Positions 4,228 through 38,939 are shown, counted from the first letter of the stretch. The stretch: DNA of 64,000 bases from Cronobacter sakazakii (GCF_000982825.1 NZ_CP011047.1:1398690-1462689), one strand, 5' to 3'. Numbers and translations: made by a program. Notes: generated by a model not told the origin, from the sequence alone.

Positions 4228-4701
4228 ATGTTCGACGTACTAATGTATTTGTTTGAAACCTATATCCATAACGAAGCTGAAATGCGCGTTGACCAGGATA
4301 AGCTGACGCGGGACCTGACGGATGCGGGTTTTGATCAGGAAGATATCTTTAATGCGCTGTTATGGCTGGAAAAGCTGGCGGATTATCAGGATGGTCTTTC
4401 CGCGCCGATGCAACTGGCGTCGGATCCACTCTCGATGCGTATTTATACCGCAGAGGAGTGCCAGCGGCTGGACGCCAGCTGTCGGGGGTTCCTGCTGTTT
4501 CTGGAACAAATTCAGGTGCTGAATCTCGAAACTCGTGAAATGGTTATCGAACGCGTCATGGCGCTGGATACTGCCGAGTTTGATTTAGAAGATCTCAAGT
4601 GGGTCATCCTGATGGTGCTGTTTAACATCCCCGGATGTGAAAACGCCTATCAACAAATGGAAGAACTGCTCTTTGAAGTGAATGACGGTATGCTGCACTG
4701 A
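4228..4701 (+). CDS. smg: Smg protein (DUF494)
   Basis: 157 aa, [19 protein letters not shown]... Its start overlaps the ancestral dprA 3' end, as it does in E. coli. Confidence 0.9.
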
Positions 4702-4724
4702 TATTTTCAGCGCAGTGGTGAATT

Positions 4725-5282
4725 ATGGCAAGGTCAGCACTCTTTTCAGTGCCCAAACACGAGCCCTGCCCAAAATGCGGGGCTGAACTTCTTATCCGTT
4801 CCGGGAAGCATGGTCCTTTCCTGGGATGTTCGCATTATCCTGAGTGTGATTACGTTCGCCCGCTGAAAAGCCAGGCGGACGGTCATATTGTCAAAGTGCT
4901 CGAAGGTCAGCAATGCCCGGCATGTGATGCGACGCTGGTGCTACGGCAGGGGCGTTTTGGGATGTTTATCGGCTGCAGCCGTTATCCTGAATGCGAACAT
5001 ACCGAGCAAATCGATAAACCTGACGAAACCGCATTGGGCTGCCCGCAGTGTAGCGACGGTCATCTGGTTCAGCGTCGGTCGCGTTTTGGCAAAACCTTCT
5101 ATTCCTGCGATCGCTATCCGGAATGCCAGTTTGTGATTAATACCAGACCGGTGGCGGGCGAGTGCCCGGAATGCCATTATCCCCTCCTTACCGAAAAGAA
5201 AACCGCGCAGGGCATAAAACGCTTTTGCGCCAGTAAACAATGTGGAAAGCCGGTAACGGCGGAAAAAGACAGTGAAGAATAA
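4725..5282 (+). CDS. yrdD: YrdD, a topoisomerase-IA-type zinc-ribbon protein
   Basis: 185 aa with four CxxC...CxxC zinc-ribbon repeats (CPKCGAEL..., CPACDATL..., CPQCSDGH..., CPECHYPL...). Confidence 0.85.
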
Positions 5283-5844
5283 TCAGCCTGCGGACGCGAT
5301 ATCGTCTATCGTCGACGTCCTTAAAAAAGAACAAGTCATCGCTTATCCAACTGAAGCCGTATTTGGCGTCGGGTGTGACCCCGACAGCGAAACCGCTGTA
5401 AAACGCCTGCTTGAATTAAAGCAACGCCCGATGGAAAAAGGACTCATCCTGATTGCGGCTAATTTTGATCAACTTAAGCCTTATATAGATGACGCCGCGC
5501 TGACGCCCGAACAGCGTGAGGCGGTGTTCGCCCGCTGGCCAGGGCCAGTGACGTTTGTTTTCCCGGCGAAACCGTCGACGCCACGCTGGCTGACAGGCCG
5601 TTTTGACTCACTGGCGGTGCGTGTGACCAATCATCCGCTGGTAATCGCACTGTGCGAGGCCTTTGGCAAACCACTGGTCTCGACGAGTGCAAATCTCTCC
5701 GGGGTTGAGCCATGCCGCACGGCGCAGGAAGTGCTGGCGCAGTTCGGTGATGATTTTCCTGTGCTGCATGGCGCAACAGGTGGTCGCCAGAATCCTTCCG
5801 AGATCCGTGATGCGCTGACGGGTGAACTTTTCCGACAGGGGTAA
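5272..5844 (+). CDS. tsaC: L-threonylcarbamoyladenylate synthase TsaC (YrdC/RimN)
   Basis: 190 aa with [19 protein letters not shown] and [11 protein letters not shown] motifs. It overlaps the yrdD end by 11 nt. Confidence 0.9.
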
Positions 5845-5847
5845 CGC

Positions 5848-6666
5848 ATGGAAACCTACGCTGTTTTTGGTAATCCTGTCTCGCACAGTAAATCGCCGTT
5901 TATTCACCAGCAATTTGCGCAGCAGTTACAGATTGAGCATCCGTATGGCCGCGTGCTGGCACCGCTCGATGATTTTGTGAAGACGCTGGAGGACTTCTTC
6001 AGCGCAGGCGGTAAAGGCGCAAACGTGACGGTGCCTTTTAAAGAACAGGCGTTTGCTCGTGCCGATGAACTGACGGAAAGAGCGGCGCTTGCCGGTGCGG
6101 TTAATACGCTGAAACGGCTCGAAGATGGTCGTTTACTGGGCGACAATACGGATGGTATTGGGCTTTTAAGCGATCTGGAACGTCTCGGTATGATCCAGCC
6201 GCGTTACCGGATCCTTCTGGTGGGCGCAGGCGGCGCAGCACGGGGCGTCTTGTTGCCTCTGCTGTCGCTGGATTGCGCGGTAACTATTACTAACCGCACT
6301 TTTGCCCGCGCGCAGGAACTCGCAACGCTCTTTAGTCATACCGGCAACGTTAACGCCGTCGCGCTTGCGGATCTGGTTGGCCATGAGTTCGATCTCATTA
6401 TTAATGCCACTTCCAGTGGGATTCACGGCGAGATCCCGACTCTTCCGTCTTCTCTGCCCGGTAAAAAAACGGCGTGCTATGACATGTTCTACCAGAAAGG
6501 GCTAACGCCATTCCTTTCATGGTGTCAGGCGCAGGGGGCAACGCAACTGGCTGACGGTATCGGGATGCTGGTGGGGCAGGCGGCGCACGCGGTTCTGCTC
6601 TGGCATGGCATCCTGCCGGATGTTGTGCCCGTTATTGATAAGCTCAGACAGGAGCTGGCGCAATGA
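5848..6666 (+). CDS. aroE: shikimate 5-dehydrogenase
   Basis: 272 aa, [20 protein letters not shown]..., with a [12 protein letters not shown]-binding loop. Confidence 0.95.
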
Positions 6667-6920
6667 ATCAGGCGATTCAGTTCCCTGATCGCGAGCACTG
6701 GGATGAACAGCGGCAGGCCGTTTGTTTTCCGGCGCTGGTCAGTGGGATGGTGCTTACCTGTGCTATTGCGCAGCCTGTGCTGGTGGCTCGCTTCTCAGGC
6801 ACGTCGCCCGAAGAATGGATAGCCGCTTTTCGTCAGCACCGTTGGGATCTGGAAGAAGAGGCTGAGCAGCTGATCGCTGCTCAGGCCGAAGACGATCAGG
6901 GTTGGGTCTGGCTCTCCTGA
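6663..6920 (+). CDS. yrdB: YrdB (DUF1488) small protein
   Basis: 85 aa. It follows aroE with a 4-nt overlap, matching E. coli synteny. Confidence 0.8.
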
Positions 6921-7929: not shown

Positions 7930-9471
<1,542 letters not shown>

Positions 9472-9549
9472 CCTGAAAGATACAACCTCGCGTGCTCACA
9501 CAGATTGTCTGATAGAAAGTAAAGAAGCAGGGTTGTCTGCGAAAGCGAA

Positions 9550-9625
9550 GTCCCTTTCGTCTAGAGGCCCAGGACACCGCCCTTTCACGGCGGTAACAGG
9601 GGTTCGAATCCCCTAAGGGACGCCA
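9550..9625 (+). tRNA. tRNA-Glu (UUC) in the 16S-23S spacer
   Basis: GTCCCTTTCGTCTAGAGGCCCAGGACACCGCCCTTTCACGGCGGTAACAGGGGTTCGAATCCCCTAAGGGACGCCA. 76 nt with an encoded CCA. It is near-identical to E. coli tRNA-Glu. Confidence 0.95.
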
Positions 9626-9827
9626 CCTGCTGGTAATGAGTGAAAGGCGTTACCGATTGATATCTCAAAACTGACTGTAAAGTCGCGTTTGAGATATTTG
9701 CTCTTTAACAATCCGGAACAAGCTGAAAATTGAAACAGACACGCTGCTGTATTTCTCCGTAATAAGAAATGCGCGGTGTGTCAGAGTCTCTCAAACTCGC
9801 AGCACGAAGACTTCTTCGGGTTGTGAG

Positions 9828-12728
<2,901 letters not shown>

Positions 12729-12818
12729 TACAACGCCAAAGAAGTCTGGCGAGTAGAGAGACAATTCAGCTTGTGACGGATAAACGTTCATGGCGGAAGC
12801 GGTGAACGGAACAGAATT

Positions 12819-12938
12819 TGCCTGGCGGCTGTAGCGCGGTGGTCCCACCTGACCCCATGCCGAACTCAGAAGTGAAACGCCGTAGCGCCGATGGTAGTGT
12901 GGGGCCTCCCCATGCGAGAGTAGGGAACTGCCAGGCAT
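12819..12938 (+). rRNA. rrf: 5S ribosomal RNA
   Basis: TGCCTGGCGGCTGTAGCGCGGTGGTCCCACCTGACCCCATGCCGAACTCAG...GGAACTGCCAGGCAT, 120 nt. Confidence 0.95.
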
Positions 12939-27208: not shown

Positions 27209-27559
27209 ATGATAAAACCGTTGTTTTGGGTCGGGCAGGCCAGAAAAGATCTTCAGGCGCTGCCGGAGGATGTACAGGATCTTTTTGGCTATGCGCTTTA
27301 TCTGGCGCAGCAGGGTAGACGCCATCCGCAGGCCAGGCCGCTTAAAGGTTTTGGCGGCGCGGGTGTACTTGAGGTGGTGGAGGATTATCAGGGGAATGCC
27401 TTTCGGGCGGTCTATACCGTGTGCCTGAAAGATGCGATTTATGTCCTGCACGTATTCCAGAAAAAATCCTCTTCCGGGATTGCCACGCCCCGCCCGGAGA
27501 TGGAAAAAATTGAACAACGACTGAAAGCCGCGCAACGCCACGCCGGAGGGCTGAAATGA
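27209..27559 (+). CDS. type II toxin, RelE/ParE superfamily (Gp49/DUF891-like HigB-type)
   Basis: 116 aa, MIKPLFWVGQARKDLQALPEDVQDLFGYALYLAQQG...AVYTVCLKDAIYVLHVFQKKSSSG... This is the phage-Gp49-like toxin fold signature (VYVLH.F.KKS). An ATGA overlap joins it to the next ORF. Confidence 0.7.
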   Translation: MIKPLFWVGQARKDLQALPEDVQDLFGYALYLAQQGRRHPQARPLKGFGGAGVLEVVEDYQGNAFRAVYTVCLKDAIYVLHVFQKKSSSGIATPRPEMEKIEQRLKAAQRHAGGLK

Positions 27560-27879
27560 CAGCAGACATTGAACGCAGTAACGGAAATGTGTATGACGAT
27601 CTCGGGCTTATCGACGCCGAAGAGATGCAGCTAAAAGCGCAGCTCGCTATGGCCGTTAGCGACATTCTTAAAGCGCGCGGCTTAACCCAGCAGGAGGCGG
27701 CCCGTCTTCTGGGCATGACCCAGCCAAAACTTTCTTTATTACTTCGCGGCCAGTTTCGCGGGATCAGCGAAACGAAAATGATGGCCTGCCTGATGCTCCT
27801 CGGGCGGGATATCAGTATCGTCGTCGGCGAAGCACAACAGGCGCGCGGAAAAATGCGCCTGATTTATGAGCCAGCCTGA
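27556..27879 (+). CDS. type II antitoxin, XRE-family HTH (HigA-like)
   Basis: 107 aa. It has an HTH, ...LTQQEAARLLGMTQPKLSLLLRGQFRGIS... Its start overlaps the toxin stop by 4 nt. Confidence 0.7.
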   Translation: MTADIERSNGNVYDDLGLIDAEEMQLKAQLAMAVSDILKARGLTQQEAARLLGMTQPKLSLLLRGQFRGISETKMMACLMLLGRDISIVVGEAQQARGKMRLIYEPA

Positions 27880-29344: not shown

Positions 29345-29382
29345 ACAAATTATGATGAAAAGCCCTCATTCAGGGGCTTTAA
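29345..29382 (-). terminator. rho-independent terminator of rtcR, overlapping its stop codon
   Basis: On the minus strand: AAAGCCCC TGAATGA GGGCTTTT followed by CATCATAATTTGTTT. Confidence 0.65.
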
Positions 29383-30958
29383 CCTGCTCCCAGCTCAGCC
29401 CAAAACGCGCCAGATATTTACGCAGCCGGTCGGCGTCGTTCGGGTTGGCTTTCTTCTGGCGCGAAACCGCAAACAGCGTGCGTCCGGCCTCAGAGAGCGA
29501 GGCGCTACGCCTGCACACGGCAACAACCGCCGCCAGCTGATCCTGGTCGAAGAGATCGAGCGTTGCGGTATCAACAGGCAGCGCGGCGGCAGGGTCTGCG
29601 AGCGGCCGCCAGCTCGCGGTAAGACGGCCGATTTCTTCCTCGACTAACGCGTCGGTAATGCGTCCCTGTTCGGCAAGCGTCGCCATGCGTGCCACCGAGC
29701 TGCCCAGTTCGCGAAAGTTGCCCGGCCAGCGCGCCTGCGGCGAGCAGGCGAAGGCGAGATAATTTTCGCGCGCCGTTTTATCAAAGCGGATCTGCGTCTG
29801 CTGCTGCGCCGAGAAGCGCTGTAGCTCATACTCCACGTTTGGCGCGATATCCTCGCGGCGCTCGGCGAGGCCCGGCAGCGCGAAGGCCCACATATTAATA
29901 CGCGCAAAGAGATCTTCACGAAAGCGGCCTTCGGCGACCCATCGCGCCATGTCGCGGTGCGTACCGGCGATCAGCTGAAAATCGCTCTGCACTTCTTTAT
30001 CCGCGCCGAACGGGAAAAAGGTCTTTTCCTCAATAGCTTTCAGCAGCATCGCCTGTTCATCGAGCCCCAGCTCAGCGATTTCATCCAGAAACAGCACGCC
30101 GCCGTCGGCCTCGCGCAGAAGCCCTGGCCGCGCCTGCTGCGCGCCGGTAAACGCGCCCTTCACGTGGCCAAAGAGCGTCGACATCGCGTTATCGCCGCGA
30201 AGCGTCGCGCAGTTCACGGAGACCAGTTTTCCCTGCACCAGATGCCGCGCCTGGCGCAGCTGGAAAATGCGCTTTGCGAGAAACGATTTCCCCGCGCCGG
30301 TCGGCCCCGTCAGCAGAATCGGCGCGGTGGATCGCAGCGCCACGCGCTCGATCTGGTCGATCAGACGGTTAAACGTGGCGTTACGGGTGTCGATGCCGGA
30401 TTTGAGGAACGACACCGACTGCTGCTGCTCGCGCTGGAAGCGGCTGGTCAGCGTCGCATAGCGGCTTAAATCGAGATCGATGACCGACGTCGTGCCGATG
30501 GTTTTCTGCGCTTCATCGTCGCCCTGACGATCGGGGCTGGTCTGTAACAGCGCCGCCGGGAGATACCGCGCTTCGGTCAGCAGGAACCAGCAGATCTGCG
30601 CCACGTGCGTGCCTGTTGTGATATGCACCAGATACTCTTCGTTATCGGTATCAAAGGGATAGCGCGTGGCGAAATCCAGCAGCGCGGCGTACACCTCCTC
30701 GAAATCCCACGGATCGTCCATCACCACGGTGTGCGGGCGTACTTCGGTATGCGGCGAGACGGCGGCGATATCTTCTGTGACCCGCTCTGCGAGCGACGCG
30801 TCGCGCGCCTGGTACAGCAGTTCAAAGCGGTCGACAGGCAAACCGGGCTGCTGGCACAGCGCGACGGACGGACGCCATTTATTCCAGCGGTTGGCGCGCT
30901 TACCGCGCCGGTCCAGTACGGTGCCCAGCATGCCAATCACCACGCGACGCTTTTGCAT
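29366..30958 (-). CDS. rtcR: sigma-54-dependent transcriptional activator RtcR (CARF sensor domain plus AAA+ domain)
   Basis: 530 aa. It is colinear with E. coli RtcR: the N-terminal CARF (…VGTVLD…WRP…HITTGTHVAQICWFLL…), the central AAA+ sigma-54-interaction domain (GPTGAGKSF, GAFTGA, ESELFGH-like FGHVKGAFTGA), and the C-terminal ...DADRLRKYLARFGL. Confidence 0.9.
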   Translation of the reverse strand: MQKRRVVIGMLGTVLDRRGKRANRWNKWRPSVALCQQPGLPVDRFELLYQARDASLAERVTEDIAAVSPHTEVRPHTVVMDDPWDFEEVYAALLDFATRYPFDTDNEEYLVHITTGTHVAQICWFLLTEARYLPAALLQTSPDRQGDDEAQKTIGTTSVIDLDLSRYATLTSRFQREQQQSVSFLKSGIDTRNATFNRLIDQIERVALRSTAPILLTGPTGAGKSFLAKRIFQLRQARHLVQGKLVSVNCATLRGDNAMSTLFGHVKGAFTGAQQARPGLLREADGGVLFLDEIAELGLDEQAMLLKAIEEKTFFPFGADKEVQSDFQLIAGTHRDMARWVAEGRFREDLFARINMWAFALPGLAERREDIAPNVEYELQRFSAQQQTQIRFDKTARENYLAFACSPQARWPGNFRELGSSVARMATLAEQGRITDALVEEEIGRLTASWRPLADPAAALPVDTATLDLFDQDQLAAVVAVCRRSASLSEAGRTLFAVSRQKKANPNDADRLRKYLARFGLSWEQVKAPE

Positions 30959-31094
30959 CTCTTATCCTTAAAGATAAATAACGATATTAAAAGATAAATC
31001 ATACGCCTTTCTGTTATAGCCGTCGCGTATCGAATAAAAAATTTATCTCTTAATAATCAACATATTAAAAATTTATTTTCACCTTAAACGAAAC

Positions 31095-31110
31095 TGGCAC
31101 GCATCTGGCA
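31095..31110 (+). promoter_or_regulatory. sigma-54 (-24/-12) promoter of the SPFH-rtcB-NTase operon
   Basis: CTGGCACGCATCTGGCA. The GG and GC are correctly spaced (TGGCAC N5 TGGCA, against the consensus TGGCAC N5 TTGCA). It is divergent from rtcR, which is the expected arrangement for an RtcR target. Confidence 0.7.
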
Positions 31111-31433
31111 ATTATCACTTCGTCAGCACGCTGGGTATGCAGGGGTTTATAGCCCCGCCGGCGCACCGGGAACGGTAACACGTTATCCAGGGGGCGTTCC
31201 GCCAGTGCAATGACGTGGAAAACGTTCGGTTTATCAGGTTCGACTCCTGAACTTTCTTTCTCCTTCCAGAGAAACGTTAAAAGCAGTACCCCGGCGGTTG
31301 AGTCGTTAGCGACCGCCACACACTGACGCCGGTAACGGCGCCGGGCGGCAGGCAGAAAAGACCGGAACAGAGGTGGCTTCCCCCTCCCGCTTCGCGCCGT
31401 TATCCGCGTCAGCCACAACAGTAAGGGAAAAAA

Positions 31434-32567
31434 ATGAATAACAAAGTGACGATTCGTAAGGGCCAGCTGGGTTTACTGGCAAAACAGGGTGATTTTTATC
31501 AGGTGCTGGAAGCGGGCGAGCATCGCCTGCCGTGGTTCAACAAACCGGATGTGACGCTGGTGGAGATGAACAGCGGTGACGTCGCGCCGGCGCTGACCGA
31601 CTATCTGCGCCGTTTTCAGCCAGAATGGGTAGAGAAATATTGCCTGGCGGTTGATACCGCCGATAACGAAACCGCGGCGCTGTGGCGTAACAACGTGCTG
31701 GTGGAAATTATCCCGCCGGGTGCGCGGCGTCTCTTCTGGCGCGACGGCGACAGCCTGCGCGCCGTGCGTATGGATACCCGCGACGTGCAGGTGCCGACGG
31801 AGATAATGGCCGCCGTGTTACAGCCGCGCGGCCGTGATGTCGTAGTGAAAGGGCGCGACGCTATCCTGACCGTTAACGTGCCCGCCTGGCATGTGGGCGT
31901 GCTGAAAATCGACGGCGTTACGCAGCCGCTGCTGCCGCCAGGCTTAAGCGCGTACTGGAAAATCAACCATCTGGTGGAGGCGGAAGTCGTGGATACGCGC
32001 CTTCAGGCGATGGAAGTCTCCGGGCAGGAGATCCTGACCAAAGATAAAGTGAACCTGCGCATTAATCTGGGGGCCAACTGGCGCTATCAGGACGTGTTGC
32101 AGGCGTACAGCCAGCTTGCCAAACCGCTGGAGCATTTATACCGCGAGCTGCAGTTTGCGTTGCGAGAGGCGGTCGGCACCCGCACGCTCGATGAGCTGCT
32201 GGAAAATAAACAGATCATCGACGATGTGGTGAGCGCGCAGGTTATCGCCCGTATGGCACCGTTTGGTATCGACGTGGCGTCGACCGGCGTGAAAGACATC
32301 GTGCTGCCGGGCGACATGAAAACGATTTTGTCGCGGCTGGTGGAGGCGGAGAAATCCGCGCAGGCGAACGTGATTCGTCGCCGTGAAGAGACCGCCGCGA
32401 CCCGTTCGCTGCTGAACACCGCAAAAGTCATGGAAAACAATCCGGTCGCACTGCGACTGAAAGAGCTCGAAACCCTGGAAAAAGTGGCGGAGCGTATCGA
32501 TAAGATCTCCGTATTCGGCGGCCTGGATCAGGTGCTGCAGGGGCTGGTACAGATTAAAGGGGTATAA
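31434..32567 (+). CDS. SPFH / band-7 (stomatin-prohibitin, slipin-like) domain protein with no evident N-terminal TM anchor
   Basis: 377 aa. It carries the SPFH signature (TKDKVNLRINLGANWRYQDV…LREAVGTRTLDELLENKQIIDDVV…GIDVASTGVKDIVLPGDMKTILSRLVEAEKSAQANVIRRREETAA). It is the first gene after the sigma-54 promoter and is 2 nt from rtcB. Confidence 0.75.
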   Translation: MNNKVTIRKGQLGLLAKQGDFYQVLEAGEHRLPWFNKPDVTLVEMNSGDVAPALTDYLRRFQPEWVEKYCLAVDTADNETAALWRNNVLVEIIPPGARRLFWRDGDSLRAVRMDTRDVQVPTEIMAAVLQPRGRDVVVKGRDAILTVNVPAWHVGVLKIDGVTQPLLPPGLSAYWKINHLVEAEVVDTRLQAMEVSGQEILTKDKVNLRINLGANWRYQDVLQAYSQLAKPLEHLYRELQFALREAVGTRTLDELLENKQIIDDVVSAQVIARMAPFGIDVASTGVKDIVLPGDMKTILSRLVEAEKSAQANVIRRREETAATRSLLNTAKVMENNPVALRLKELETLEKVAERIDKISVFGGLDQVLQGLVQIKGV

Positions 32568-32569
32568 CA

Positions 32570-33796
32570 ATGAAAGAGAATCACTATCAGACGCTGGCGC
32601 AGGCTAACGGCGCGCCGGTAAAAATGTGGACCCACGGCGTGCCGGTAGAGCCGGAAGCGCGTGAGCAGCTGCTGAAAACGGCGAAAATGCCGTTTATTTT
32701 TAAACACCTGGCGGTGATGCCGGATGTGCATCTCGGTAAAGGCTCGACCATCGGCAGCGTGATCCCGACCAAAGGCGCGATTATCCCGGCGGCGGTGGGC
32801 GTGGATATCGGCTGCGGGATGATCGCGGTGCGCACGTCGCTCGTGGCGCGCGATCTGCCGGATAACCTGAGCGGGCTGCGCAGCGCCATCGAACAGGCCG
32901 TCCCGCACGGGCGCACCACAGGGCGCGGCCAGCGTGATAAAGGCGCGTGGTCGAACACGCCGCAGGATGTGGACCACCACTGGGCATCGCTTGCGCCGCG
33001 CTTTAAACGCCTGACGGATAAATATCCCAACCTGTTGAAGACTAACAATCATCAGCATCTGGGAACGCTCGGTACGGGTAACCACTTTATCGAGATCTGC
33101 CTTGATGAACAGGAGCGCGTGTGGGTGATGCTGCACAGCGGATCGCGCGGCGTGGGTAACGCCATCGGCACCCATTTCATCGGGCTTGCGCAGAAAGATA
33201 TGCAGCGCCATATGGCGAATCTGCCGGACCGCGATCTCGCCTATTTTGAAGAGGGCAGCAAGCACTACGCCGATTACATCGAGGCGGTGGAGTGGGCGCA
33301 GGATTTCGCGCGCCAGAACCGCGAAGTGATGATGAACCGCGTGCTGGCGGCGCTTTCCTCGATTATCACGAAGCCGTTTATGACGCAGCAGGAGGCCGTG
33401 AACTGCCACCATAACTATGTGCAGAAAGAGACGCATTTTGGTGAAGAGATCCTGGTGACGCGCAAAGGCGCGGTGTCGGCGCAAAAAGGCCAGATGGGCA
33501 TCATTCCGGGCTCCATGGGTGCCAAAAGCTTTATCGTGCGCGGGCTGGGAAACGAAGAGAGTTTTTGTTCATGCAGCCACGGCGCAGGGCGCGCGATGAG
33601 CCGTACCGCGGCGAAAAAACGCTTCACGGTGGAAGATCAAATCCGCGCCACGGCGCACGTGGAGTGCCGTAAAGACAGCGATGTCATTGATGAGATCCCG
33701 ATGGCGTATAAAGACATCGACGCCGTGATGGCCGCGCAGTCGTCGCTGGTGGAAATTGTGCATACGCTGCGTCAGGTCGTGTGCGTGAAAGGATAA
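32570..33796 (+). CDS. rtcB: RNA-splicing ligase RtcB (3'-phosphate/2',3'-cyclic-phosphate RNA ligase)
   Basis: 408 aa. It is colinear with E. coli RtcB (KMWT.GVPVE, PDVHLGKGSTIGSVIPT, GNHFIE, CHHNYV, SCSHGAGR). Confidence 0.93.
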   Translation: MKENHYQTLAQANGAPVKMWTHGVPVEPEAREQLLKTAKMPFIFKHLAVMPDVHLGKGSTIGSVIPTKGAIIPAAVGVDIGCGMIAVRTSLVARDLPDNLSGLRSAIEQAVPHGRTTGRGQRDKGAWSNTPQDVDHHWASLAPRFKRLTDKYPNLLKTNNHQHLGTLGTGNHFIEICLDEQERVWVMLHSGSRGVGNAIGTHFIGLAQKDMQRHMANLPDRDLAYFEEGSKHYADYIEAVEWAQDFARQNREVMMNRVLAALSSIITKPFMTQQEAVNCHHNYVQKETHFGEEILVTRKGAVSAQKGQMGIIPGSMGAKSFIVRGLGNEESFCSCSHGAGRAMSRTAAKKRFTVEDQIRATAHVECRKDSDVIDEIPMAYKDIDAVMAAQSSLVEIVHTLRQVVCVKG

Positions 33797-33809
33797 TTTT
33801 TAAGGAAAA

Positions 33810-34598
33810 ATGATGGAACTGAACGGGGTGGATGCCGCTATGCGCGAGCGCGTGCGGCAGGTGTTAAACGAGGTGCAAACAAAGTATGGCGTGAAGGTGC
33901 TTTACGCCTGTGAATCGGGCAGCCGGGGCTGGGGCTTTGCCTCGCCGGACAGCGACTACGACGTGCGCTTTCTCTATGTGCATCCGCCGGAGTGGTATTT
34001 ACGGGTCGATGCGCCGCGCGATGTCATCGAACTGCCCATCGACGACACGCTTGACGTCTGCGGCTGGGAGTGGCGCAAGGCGCTCGGGCTGCTCAAGCGG
34101 GCAAACCCGACGCTTATCGAGTGGCTCGACTCTCCCATCGTCTACCGGCAGGATGAAACCGCCATCGGCGCGCTGCGCGACCAGGTGCCGCTCTGGTTCT
34201 CCGCTGAGCGTGCGCGCTGGCACTACTACTCGATGGCCCGCAAAAACTTTCACAGTTATTTGCAGGGCGAGACGGTGCGGCTGAAGAAATATTTCTACGT
34301 GCTGCGCCCGCTGCTGGCGGTGCGCTGGGTGGAAGCGGGTAAGGGCGCGCCGCCGATGCGCTTTCGCACGCTGCTGGAGGGTACGGTGAACGATCCGCTG
34401 CTGCGGGCGGAAATCGACACGTTGCTTGCCGCCAAACAGCGAGCGGGTGAGGCCGAGTACGGCGCACCGATGCCGCGGATACACGCGTTTATCGCTGCAG
34501 AGCTGGCGCGCGGCGAAACGCCGCCGGAGCTGCCGCAGAGTGAAAAGGCGCAGGCGAGTCTGTTAGATAAGCTGCTTTATGAAACGGTGATGGCCTGA
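33810..34598 (+). CDS. minimal Pol-beta-superfamily nucleotidyltransferase (pfam10127-like), RtcB-associated
   Basis: 262 aa. The NTase motif is ...LYACESGSRGWGFASPDSDYDVRFLYV... (the GS plus DxD pattern). It sits 13 nt after rtcB in the same operon. The family assignment is from memory and has not been searched. Confidence 0.55.
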   Translation: MMELNGVDAAMRERVRQVLNEVQTKYGVKVLYACESGSRGWGFASPDSDYDVRFLYVHPPEWYLRVDAPRDVIELPIDDTLDVCGWEWRKALGLLKRANPTLIEWLDSPIVYRQDETAIGALRDQVPLWFSAERARWHYYSMARKNFHSYLQGETVRLKKYFYVLRPLLAVRWVEAGKGAPPMRFRTLLEGTVNDPLLRAEIDTLLAAKQRAGEAEYGAPMPRIHAFIAAELARGETPPELPQSEKAQASLLDKLLYETVMA

Positions 34599-34618
34599 CA
34601 ATGTCAGGCCATTTTTTT
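34592..34618 (+). terminator. terminator hairpin at the NTase stop codon; it may also serve the convergent lysC
   Basis: GGCCTGACA A TGTCAGGCC followed by ATTTTTTTGG. Confidence 0.7.
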
Positions 34619-34621
34619 GGC

Positions 34622-35974
34622 TTACTCGAAGAGATTGTGGTGCAGCTTCTGGACGACCTGTTCGGCATCGTTGCCCGGCACCAGGAAGCAGAGGTTATAG
34701 CTCGACGCGCCGTAGCAAATCATGCGGATGTTAAACGGCTCCAGCACGCCAAACACCTCTTTGCCGACGCCGCAGGCTTTGGAGAGGTTATTGCCAATCA
34801 ACGCCACCAGCGCCAGGTTTTCTTCCACCTCCACGCGGCAGAGCGAGGAGAGCTCGGTCAGCAGCGCCTGCGTCAGCAGCGTATCGCCGGTTGACGTGGA
34901 GCCGGTCGTGTCGAGCGTCAGCGCCACGCTCACTTCCGACGTGGTAATGAGATCGACCGAAATATTATGGCGCGCCAGGATGCTGAACACTTCCGCGAGG
35001 AAACCGCGCGAGTGCAGCATGTTCAGGCTGTGGAGCGTCAGCAGCGTCTGCTTGCGGCGCAGCGCCAGCGCGCGGAACAGCGGCGGGTTGGTGGTTTTGT
35101 TGCACACCAGCGTGCCGCCTGCTTTAGGGTCTTTGCTGGAGCCGACAAACACCGGAATATCGCTGCGCACGGCCGGCAGCAGCGTCGCCGGGTGCAGCAC
35201 TTTCGCGCCGAATGTCGCCATCTCGGCAGCTTCTTCAAAGGCGATTTCATCAATGCGTTTCGCGGCGGGCACCACGCGCGGATCGGTGGTGTAAATGCCC
35301 GGCACGTCGGTCCAGATATCCACGCGGCGCGCTTTCAGCGCCTCGGCGAGCAGGGCGGCGGTATAGTCGCTGCCGCCGCGGCCAAGCGTAGTGGTGCGTC
35401 CTTTGGCTTCGCTGCCGATAAAACCCTGGGTGATAACCAGCCCTTCCGCCAGGCGCGGCGCGAGCTGCTGCGTACAGAGTTCGGCGAGCGCCGCGACATC
35501 CGGCTCGGCGCGGCCGAAGCGGTCGCTGGTGCGCATCACTTTACGCACGTCAAACCACAGCGCGTCCACGCCGCGCTCGCGCAGGATCTCGACAAACAGC
35601 AGGGTGGACATCAGCTCGCCGTGGCTGACCAGCTCATCGGTAAGCGCGGTGGAGGTCGCAAGCGACGCGGCTTCGGAAAGCGTGGCGATGTTTTCCAGCA
35701 GGCGATCAATCTCTTCGCGGATAACCGTCGGGTTTTGCAGGCGTTCCAGAATGTCGTACTGAATTTTGCGGATGGTGTCGAGCTTTACATAGCGCTCGGT
35801 CGCTTCGAGCCCTTCAGCCAGCGCCACCAGCAGGTTGGTGATCCCGGCGGAGGCGGAAAGCACCACGAGACGGACGTGAGCGTCGTCCAGGACGACATTG
35901 GCGCTGCGGTTCATGGCGTCGAAATCCGCCACGCTGGTGCCGCCAAATTTAGCGACCACTAAAGAATCTGTCAT
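34622..35974 (-). CDS. lysC: lysine-sensitive aspartokinase III
   Basis: 450 aa, colinear with E. coli LysC (KFGGTSVADFDAMNRSA..., ends QKLHHNLFE). Confidence 0.95.
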   Translation of the reverse strand: MTDSLVVAKFGGTSVADFDAMNRSANVVLDDAHVRLVVLSASAGITNLLVALAEGLEATERYVKLDTIRKIQYDILERLQNPTVIREEIDRLLENIATLSEAASLATSTALTDELVSHGELMSTLLFVEILRERGVDALWFDVRKVMRTSDRFGRAEPDVAALAELCTQQLAPRLAEGLVITQGFIGSEAKGRTTTLGRGGSDYTAALLAEALKARRVDIWTDVPGIYTTDPRVVPAAKRIDEIAFEEAAEMATFGAKVLHPATLLPAVRSDIPVFVGSSKDPKAGGTLVCNKTTNPPLFRALALRRKQTLLTLHSLNMLHSRGFLAEVFSILARHNISVDLITTSEVSVALTLDTTGSTSTGDTLLTQALLTELSSLCRVEVEENLALVALIGNNLSKACGVGKEVFGVLEPFNIRMICYGASSYNLCFLVPGNDAEQVVQKLHHNLFE

Positions 35975-35999: not shown

Positions 36000-36220
36000 C
36001 ATCATGTATGGCGGAATCTGTTCAGCCTGGGCACAAGGAAAGCGCAGTAAAGGGGCGGACGCAGGAGTATAAAACCAACGTTACGATACACCCAGAAGCG
36101 CTCCACCTTGCGAAACGTTCGACTGCCGTCGTTTCGGGTGACAGCCCAGGGGATTCAGCCCCTGCAGCCGATGACGCGCCTTACCAGACAGCGCGCCATC
36201 TCGGCGTCGTTCCCCCTCGC
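36000..36220 (-). promoter_or_regulatory. lysine riboswitch (L-box) in the lysC 5' leader
   Basis: The minus-strand leader reads ...GCCGAGATGGCGCGCTGTCTGGTAAGGCGCGTCATCGGCTGCAGGGGCTGAATCCCCTGGGCTGTCACCCGAAACGACGGCAGTCGAACGTTTCGCAAGGTGGAGCGCTTCTGGGTG... This is nearly identical to the E. coli lysC L-box aptamer. The boundaries are approximate. Confidence 0.75.
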
Positions 36221-36290
36221 GTGTGGTCGTAGGACGGGTTCCTCGCACACGTTACCTGGCCGACGCGCCTCTTCCGGTTTTCCTTCATAT

Positions 36291-38558: not shown

Positions 38559-38588
38559 TTTTAAATAAGCGTGTCAAATAAGCGTAAT

Positions 38589-38617
38589 GATGCCGGCAAT
38601 ATGCCGGCATTTTTTTC
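38589..38617 (+). terminator. pgi terminator
   Basis: ATGCCGGCAATATGCCGGCAT followed by TTTTTTT. Confidence 0.85.
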
Positions 38618-38939
38618 TCAGATAAATCTTGTTGTTCGCCCACGTCCCGCTACTCTTTAATCTTGAGGTTAATCCGAAAATCGCCGTGCCCGTCTTCTGC
38701 ACGCCTGAAATGTTTCAGATAAACCGGATTTCCATTTTGCAGGGATATATTATAACAAGTTGAAAAACAGGCGATTTATATAAAATCTATTACGCCATCC
38801 TGCGCCATTTGTCTAATTATCCTAAAACCCTGTGCCTATTTCCCTGTGTCGTAAACCGGCAGGGGTTGTTGTGTATACTCGGAAGCGCCTGAAAAGCTTT
38901 TCAGGTAAATCTCCATTCATTCAATGAAGGGAAATTGAT

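Follow-up and report, generated by a model that had tools for sequence, protein, structure and literature searches.

A predicted RtcR-controlled Band-7-type RNA-repair operon with a conserved leader RNA in Cronobacter sakazakii

A bacterial system that combines a Band-7 (SPFH) protein, a transfer RNA (tRNA)-like non-coding RNA called b7a-tRNA, the RNA ligase RtcB and, optionally, the nucleotidyltransferase RlaP was predicted by Burroughs & Aravind in 2016, as passages of 10.1101/312249 and PMC12776372 relate. In one such passage, Wang et al. (10.1101/312249) describe b7a-tRNA as strongly tRNA-like and experimentally unvalidated. An example is found in Pseudomonas aeruginosa, where rtcR lies divergent from PA14_60630 (PaFlo8), rtcB, rlaP and rtcA; a passage of PMC13086221 (2026) likewise places the SPFH protein PaFlo8 within the rtc locus, and the gene order given for P. 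fluorescens and P. aeruginosa in PMC12776372 is rtcR divergent from rtcB-rlaP-rtcA. Here we describe a related locus of Cronobacter sakazakii, contained in a stretch of 64,000 nucleotides (nt) that we call the window (GCF_000982825.1 NZ_CP011047.1:1398690-1462689; positions are counted from its first letter). The locus comprises rtcR, a divergent promoter, a leader of about 320 nt and genes for an SPFH protein, RtcB and RlaP, and is a variant of this recognised, computationally predicted and experimentally unproven class. Its most distinctive part is the leader, which comparative analysis predicts to be a conserved structured RNA and which the initial annotation of this DNA had overlooked.

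The family PF10127 was named RlaP for its linkage to RNA ligases (Carruthers et al., PMC12776372, preprint 2025). The Pseudomonas enzyme adds one or two nucleoside monophosphates to RNA 3'-OH ends in vitro, with a preference for damaged RNA, and has been proposed to replace nucleotides excised by "smart" ribotoxins such as RloC; RlaP is also found with 5'-phosphate ligases (all PMC12776372). RtcR is activated by 5' tRNA halves with 2',3'-cyclic phosphate ends (PMC7790460).

The four open reading frames have exactly the coordinates given in the initial annotation, and Pfam searches confirmed its identifications as RtcR, Band_7/SPFH, RtcB and RlaP. The gene rtcR (29366-30958, minus strand) encodes a CARF-domain, sigma-54-dependent AAA+ transcriptional activator of 530 amino acids (aa). 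On the plus strand follow the gene for a stomatin-like SPFH/Band-7 protein, annotated as 'slipin' (31434-32567; 377 aa), rtcB (32570-33796; 408 aa), predicted to encode a 3'-phosphate/2',3'-cyclic-phosphate RNA ligase, and rlaP (33810-34598; 262 aa), encoding a PF10127 Pol-beta-superfamily nucleotidyltransferase. The regulator matched the CARF-type RtcR domain over the entire profile (2.4e-85, positions 1-183 of 183) as well as Sigma54_activat (9.6e-49), and was assigned to the RtcR equivalog of NCBIfam with 844 bits (cut-off 650); PADLOC named RtcR alone. RlaP matched its Pfam profile at full length (4.9e-95, 318 bits, positions 1-248 of 249), and Pfam now names this family RlaP, "RNA repair pathway DNA polymerase beta family". 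A sequence search of the PDB with RlaP as query gave no match.

RtcB (Pfam RtcB, 3e-133) has an intact active site, with all ten of the checked catalytic, metal-binding and guanylylation residues of the E. coli enzyme kept. These residues are D75, C78, N167, H168, H185, R189, H281, H337, R341 and R345, which we take to be those established by work of the Shuman laboratory.

The gaps between the SPFH gene and rtcB and between rtcB and rlaP are 2 and 13 nt, and a separate Shine-Dalgarno sequence precedes the start codon of each downstream gene. No sigma-70-like promoter was found from 30900 to 34700. A strong intrinsic terminator with an 11-bp stem and a T-run, identified by a terminator scan and from the sequence (34589-34613, no strand assigned), serves the convergent genes rlaP and lysC. 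Because of the short gaps, the lack of an internal sigma-70-like promoter and the position of this terminator, the predicted arrangement of the three genes in a single operon, maybe translationally coupled, is supported. The initial annotation had read the same gaps as a sign that the SPFH protein and the nucleotidyltransferase are stoichiometric partners of the ligase; the gap lengths are correct and suggest an operon or coupling, but such a partnership does not follow from them.

Control of this operon by RtcR and sigma-54 is supported by the layout of the locus. The predicted sigma-54 promoter, TGGCACGCATCTGGCA (31095-31110, plus strand), has GG at -24 and GC at -12, and is the sole match in the window to TGGCAC-N5-YKGCW. 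Because about 0.45 such matches are expected per window by chance, this count is little proof, and the promoter call stands more on conservation. The cores TGGCACG and TGGCAA were unchanged in an alignment of eight enterobacterial genera, and together with its flank the element, CTGGCACG...GCAATTATCA, shows homology to the promoter of E. coli rtcBA, in agreement with the promoter position proposed earlier. Beside the start of rtcR, the repeats TTATCC...GATAAAT and CGATATT...GATAAAT (30962-30999, no strand assigned) are putative upstream activating sites for RtcR. Their TTAT/ATAA columns were invariant in the eight genera; a repeat-like ATCCTTA..AAAGA..CGATATT occurs upstream of E. coli rtcB, and TTATC...GATAA occurs in Pseudomonas loci.

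The promoter is separated from the SPFH start codon by a 320-nt leader (31111-31433), as compared with a promoter-rtcB distance of about 45 nt in E. coli. As a whole, the leader was more stably folded than shuffled sequence (z -3.8), and it is conserved in Cronobacter, Citrobacter, Superficieibacter, Klebsiella, Mangrovibacter, Lonsdalea and Providencia. Searches against Rfam 15, at gathering as well as permissive thresholds, assigned no family to the leader, including its 5' domain.

Covariation and covariance model matches point to a three-way junction in the 5' domain of the leader (31118-31220, plus strand). The predicted junction is closed by the helix CGCTGG/CCAGTG (31129-31134 / 31202-31207), from which a hairpin (31139-31158) and a long arm (31159-31201) extend, and a weaker outer helix CGTCA/TGACG is formed by 31121-31125 and 31211-31215. 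In eight enteric sequences, 16 of the 23 pairs predicted by RNAalifold showed compensatory changes. A covariance model built from these sequences (R1) scored 92 bits in the window, and a later-round model (R3) scored 80 bits. R1 found matches in 22 sources, exclusively upstream of SPFH genes. In 54 of the 83 sources searched, among them beta-proteobacteria and cyanobacteria without RtcR and RtcB, the second-round model gave exactly one match per locus, always located upstream of the SPFH gene and on the plus strand; it gave no match in the canonical E. coli rtcR-rtcBA locus. In the alignment of these 54 sequences, 92.6% of the cells were paired, as against 37-50% when the partners were slid by 1-3 columns, and 227 cells were doubly changed, as against 27-58 in the slid controls. 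None of 500 shuffles reached the observed values on any measure. These pairing statistics are somewhat inflated by the fitting of the alignment to the model, but the margin is still large.

Two further observations concern the internal organisation of the leader. In Burkholderia, a conserved motif of the 5' domain, CC(C/T)GC(C/T)GGTGC, occurs a second time in the leader's 3' part, some 230 nt further downstream (positions 5531 and 5759 in locus L012; 5549 and 5778 in locus L019), and the window has a looser copy, ACCCCGGCGG (31154 and ~31288). The recurrence might reflect a binding site present twice or an alternative partner for pairing. In the fold of the whole leader, 31123-31135 paired over a long range with 31291-31302, but this pairing was dropped for lack of conservation in Citrobacter.

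The 5' domain is followed by a hairpin resembling the T-arm of a tRNA, TCAGG-TTCGACT-CCTGA (31234-31250, plus strand), which we read as a remnant of the band-7-associated tRNA-like units. Its GGTTCGAYTCC was unvarying in enterics, and its stem covaries. A model built from 41 b7a-tRNA-like units of relatives (R2) matched the window at T-arm positions 47-65 alone, with 13.1 bits and an E value of about 0.09. No complete tRNA-like unit was found in the window leader by ARAGORN, nor by the Rfam tRNA model at E<=10.

T-loops occur right after the 5' domain in 52 of the 54 related leaders: two in 41 of them (at about +55 and +125 nt), one in 11 and none in the remaining two. All enterics are among the 11, with their T-loop at +2 to +20. 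In Pseudomonas, Burkholderia and many others, the T-loops are parts of two tandem tRNA-like genes, which in most loci sit between the 5' domain and the SPFH gene. These genes have canonical D- and T-arms, variable acceptor stems and, in some cases, a CCA end; in many of them the anticodon loop is abnormal, frequently a UUCG-type tetraloop, and some score as tRNA in Rfam. Since only the T-arm matches in the window while relatives hold full units, the enteric lineage appears to have kept the 5' domain and one T-arm and to have lost the remaining tRNA-like parts.

The 3' part of the leader contains two further predicted hairpins. A short one, TTTCTC-CTTCCA-GAGAAA (31257-31274, plus strand), was recognised by eye after the T-arm, and a hairpin of different sequence was likewise seen at the equivalent position in enterics and in Pseudomonas and Burkholderia. 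The second is long and irregular (31323-31412, plus strand) and stops 10 nt before the ribosome-binding site. RNAalifold assigned it 25 pairs in the eight enterics, 16 of them with compensatory changes; its conserved unpaired segments are GGCA(A/G)AA, TTCCCC and CTTCGC. A candidate acceptor-like stem closing the T-arm (GGAAA/TTTCT in the window; GCGAA/TTCGC in two other genera) was set aside, since Citrobacter and Klebsiella lack it and its formation would compete with that of the conserved hairpin further downstream.

The T-arm hairpin runs into a T-rich tract, ACTTTCTTTC (31234-31260), that was flagged as terminator-like, and the sequence is T-rich there in Citrobacter and Klebsiella too. 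If transcription stopped there part of the time, a short RNA some 135 nt long could be set free. At seven related loci, 6-25 ordinary tRNA genes lie on the same strand directly upstream of the tRNA-like unit(s) and the SPFH gene (L016, L025, L027, L037, L044, L058, L063). These loci belong mostly to Burkholderiales and to gammaproteobacterial metagenome-assembled genomes, often with RtcB downstream, and five of them (all except L058 and L063) gave a match to the 5' RNA domain. The arrays may represent a spare set of tRNAs coupled to the repair module.

The SPFH protein matched Pfam Band_7 at residues 148-319 (7e-26). A cytoplasmic location, as given in the initial annotation, agrees with the sequence: no transmembrane segment or N-terminal membrane anchor was found, the maximum 19-residue Kyte-Doolittle score being 1.2. 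In a monomer model, two soluble N-terminal beta-rich repeats (residues 1-140) precede the SPFH domain and long C-terminal helices. An SPFH fold followed by a coiled-coil, as in SPFH/stomatin scaffolds, is hence present, and the fold with its long C-terminal helices matches the cage-forming stomatin, HflK-HflC and prohibitin. Assembly into a ring or cage is common to all solved SPFH proteins, and by analogy the Cronobacter protein probably does the same. An identical protein is recorded in C. sakazakii, and its 90%-identity cluster comprises C. sakazakii, C. malonaticus, C. turicensis and C. dublinensis. Relatives in other genera and classes are 42-66% identical and form a full-length family of 526 clusters (50% identity) below 1e-30, which includes the proteins of Band-7/b7a-tRNA systems. 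Several longer relatives (500-660 aa) have additional N-terminal beta-rich repeats (L009, L023, L036, L053 and L072; P0122, P0125 and others).

The Cronobacter locus shares with the Band-7/b7a-tRNA systems a divergent RtcR, an SPFH protein without transmembrane segment, RtcB, RlaP and the 5' domain of an upstream non-coding RNA. It differs from them in the lack of rtcA and in the reduction of the tRNA-like unit to a T-arm. In Pseudomonas, rlaP lies between rtcB and rtcA; in Cronobacter it also comes right after rtcB but is the last gene. Like Pseudomonas RlaP (PMC12776372), the Cronobacter protein is a full-length PF10127 member with a Pol-beta GS...DxD motif (GSRGWGFASPDSDYD, residue 37).

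Two other RtcR-controlled systems are less similar. The E. coli rtcR-rtcBA locus has homologous RtcR (62% amino-acid identity) and RtcB (74%) and a sigma-54 promoter, but it has a leader of only about 45 nt, encodes RtcA, lacks SPFH and RlaP, and lies at glpR-malT instead of yjbD-lysC. Of the canonical Rtc components, the Cronobacter locus hence has RtcR, the predicted divergent sigma-54 promoter and an intact RtcB, and lacks RtcA in the operon. The rsr-yrlBA-rtcBA locus of Salmonella likewise sets a predicted RNA-binding scaffold and an operon-encoded structured RNA with tRNA-like features beside RtcB. However, its scaffold is Ro60/TROVE and its RNA comes after the protein gene, whereas in Cronobacter the scaffold is SPFH and the RNA comes before it. 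No protein of the Cronobacter operon had a Pfam match to the TROVE domain, and Rfam searches found no Y-RNA family in the leader.

Gene content was surveyed by tblastn for rtcR, rtcB, rlaP and rtcA in the fetched flanks of 80 species-level loci encoding SPFH relatives. A divergent rtcR was present in 32 loci, rtcB in 37, rlaP in 19 and rtcA in 15. All four genes were found together in nine loci, rtcR with rtcB and rtcA in five, rtcR with rtcB alone in eight, and rtcR with rlaP but without rtcB in five. The combination of the window, rtcR with rtcB and rlaP, occurred in three loci, namely Citrobacter amalonaticus, a Burkholderia and a truncated P. entomophila contig. Two loci had rtcR only and ten had rtcB only, while one combined rtcB with rlaP and rtcA, one combined rtcB with rlaP, and 36 had none of the four. 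A tblastn search with E. coli RtcA found no rtcA in the 64-kb window (best E 0.85), as had been claimed. This had been one of the grounds for calling the locus non-canonical, but such an absence is ordinary in the family: rtcA was missing from the fetched flanks of 22 of the 37 rtcB-containing loci, in keeping with the gene shuffling typical of such systems.

The chromosomal position of the operon is shared as well. The same operon is found in C. amalonaticus, flanked as in Cronobacter by the gene of an SBF-family transporter and by lysC-pgi. The five loci in which rtcR is divergent from leader, SPFH gene and rlaP without rtcB belong to Superficieibacter, Klebsiella oxytoca, Klebsiella sp., Lonsdalea and Mangrovibacter (L004, L005, L006, L007, L045), and in the two Klebsiella the flanking genes are as in Cronobacter. 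A megablast search of the locus against E. coli gave no match; in the 'distant' search mode, a related "slipin family protein" gene (~72% DNA identity) surfaced in 1631 of 5426 complete E. coli genomes (~30%). In the one strain examined, E. coli 6EVA (L084, NZ_CP138428.1 243603-254697, ~4520-6895), the yjbD-lysC interval contains this SPFH gene. Upstream of the gene are a sigma-54 promoter, CTGGCACGATTCTCGCA, and a leader with the 5' domain (52.8 bits), T-arm and long hairpin; downstream come genes for RlaP and a zeta toxin, and neither rtcR nor rtcB lies in the vicinity. Because the Citrobacter, Klebsiella and 6EVA modules all occupy the yjbD-lysC interval, this comparison of gene order identifies it as the shared home of the SPFH module in Enterobacteriaceae. 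The earlier argument that a position at yjbD-lysC instead of glpR-malT marks the locus as an acquired module is therefore weak. In E. coli with such an orphan module, RtcR, encoded at glpR-malT, may drive this second operon in trans.

Several other features were noted in the window. About 1.5 kb from rtcR lies a toxin-antitoxin pair (27209-27879, plus strand), in which the gene of a Gp49/HigB-like toxin (PF05973, 1e-22) overlaps that of an HTH_37 antitoxin (4e-26); the pair might damage RNA locally. Further away are a ribosomal RNA operon (16S - tRNA-Glu - 23S - 5S, 7930-12936), a lysine riboswitch upstream of lysC (36088-36281, minus strand) and the small RNA STnc430 downstream of pgi (38579-38738, minus strand).

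Taken together, we consider it probable that the locus represents a Band-7 (SPFH)-type RNA-repair operon under the control of RtcR and sigma-54. Judging from its relatives, broken tRNAs with 2',3'-cyclic phosphate ends would bind to RtcR's CARF domain and switch on the promoter. RtcB would then rejoin 2',3'-cyclic-phosphate or 3'-phosphate ends to 5'-OH ends, and RlaP would give back one or two nucleotides to 3' ends trimmed after cleavage. By analogy with Ro60 and Y RNA, as in Salmonella rsr-yrlBA-rtcBA, the leader RNA, whole or processed, would bind the SPFH protein, and this ribonucleoprotein would serve to recruit the repair enzymes or their tRNA substrates, or to organise them. The initial annotation had come to a similar interpretation, which is partly supported. 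It had regarded the operon as uncharacterised, and indeed the whole system is without experimental study, but the arrangement had already been predicted and RlaP activity has been reconstituted in vitro.

Several points weigh against this reading. In Cronobacter, the defining tRNA-like partner of the published system has shrunk to a T-arm, and the accumulation and processing of the leader and its binding to SPFH are proposals made by analogy. As the RlaP authors themselves point out (PMC12776372), RtcB is unable to join the 3'-OH ends that RlaP leaves; the operon encodes no kinase or cyclase that would bridge the two activities. Activation of RtcR in Salmonella needs RtcA in some backgrounds (PMC7790460), and E. 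coli RtcA and RtcB both bind the CARF domain according to a passage of PMC9650030, while the Cronobacter operon encodes no RtcA. A paFlo8 mutant of P. aeruginosa had no phenotype in the assays of growth, virulence, motility, biofilm and oxidative stress covered by a passage of PMC13086221. Finally, because the 6EVA and Klebsiella modules consist of leader, SPFH gene and rlaP without an adjacent rtcB, the SPFH/RlaP pair is not strictly an accessory of the ligase.

This last point leads to another division of labour, in which leader RNA, SPFH and RlaP form the core, RtcB and RtcR are exchangeable with any ligase or regulator encoded elsewhere, and this particular RtcB is not the partner of SPFH and RlaP. 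The five relatives with rtcR but no rtcB, the frequency of the SPFH gene in E. coli, the promoter, leader and rlaP of 6EVA with neither rtcR nor rtcB nearby, and the occurrence of RlaP alongside 5'-phosphate ligases (PMC12776372) would all fit such a core. We nevertheless hold it to be possible rather than likely, given that rtcB sits between the SPFH gene and rlaP in the window with the short gaps noted above, and is retained beside the SPFH gene in 37 of the 80 related loci. The leader, in turn, might be a purely cis-acting 5' untranslated region (an attenuator, a site of SPFH autoregulation or a sensor of tRNA fragments) that sets the output of SPFH, RtcB and RlaP. It lies physically within the messenger RNA, starting at the predicted transcription start, and it accompanies the SPFH gene even in the absence of RtcR and RtcB. 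Moreover, no intrinsic terminator separates it from this gene, as the sole terminator-like match is the T-arm with its weak T-tract. Most relatives, however, hold two complete tRNA-like genes at the same position, some of them CCA-ended, in a layout like that of the stable RNAs yrlA/yrlB. In addition, the ribosome-binding site lies beyond the end of the long hairpin and is not sequestered by it, and the alternative long-range pairing is the one not conserved in Citrobacter. An exclusively regulatory leader thus seems rather unlikely to us.

It is far less probable that the locus is a decaying remnant that has lost rtcA and nearly all of its tRNA-like RNA and is heading to inactivation. The reduction of the tRNA-like units to one T-arm, the absence of rtcA from the window and the loss of rtcB or rtcR in relatives could be read in this way. 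Yet all four open reading frames are intact with their catalytic motifs, the SPFH protein falls into a single 90%-identity cluster across four Cronobacter species, and the reduced RNA is conserved with compensatory changes over eight genera.

Within the favoured reading of a Band-7-type repair operon, we tentatively suggest, as an idea that may well prove wrong, that the 5' domain (31118-31220) represents a widespread RNA family, so far undescribed, whose members are the actual partners of a soluble SPFH protein that forms rings. Along with tRNA-like modules, this RNA would make up a ribonucleoprotein of the Ro/Y-RNA kind by which the repair of tRNAs is organised. If so, E. coli with an orphan leader-SPFH-RlaP module, as in the one strain examined, would have a second operon under trans control of a distant RtcR.

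Bacterial RtcB repair systems come with pairs of a scaffold and an RNA, namely Ro60 with Y RNA and Band-7 with b7a-tRNA. The newest useful points of the present analysis are the covarying 5' RNA domain, which is absent from Rfam, and the wide occurrence of a related SPFH gene in E. coli. The locus brings the experimentally unproven Band-7 branch into tractable Enterobacteriaceae (Cronobacter, Citrobacter and Klebsiella), where the 5' domain of the leader, a compact and strongly covarying predicted RNA, is amenable to deletion, tagging and pull-down. It also makes two puzzles testable: how the 3'-OH product of RlaP relates to the 3'-phosphate needed by RtcB, and how RtcR would be activated without an operon-encoded RtcA.

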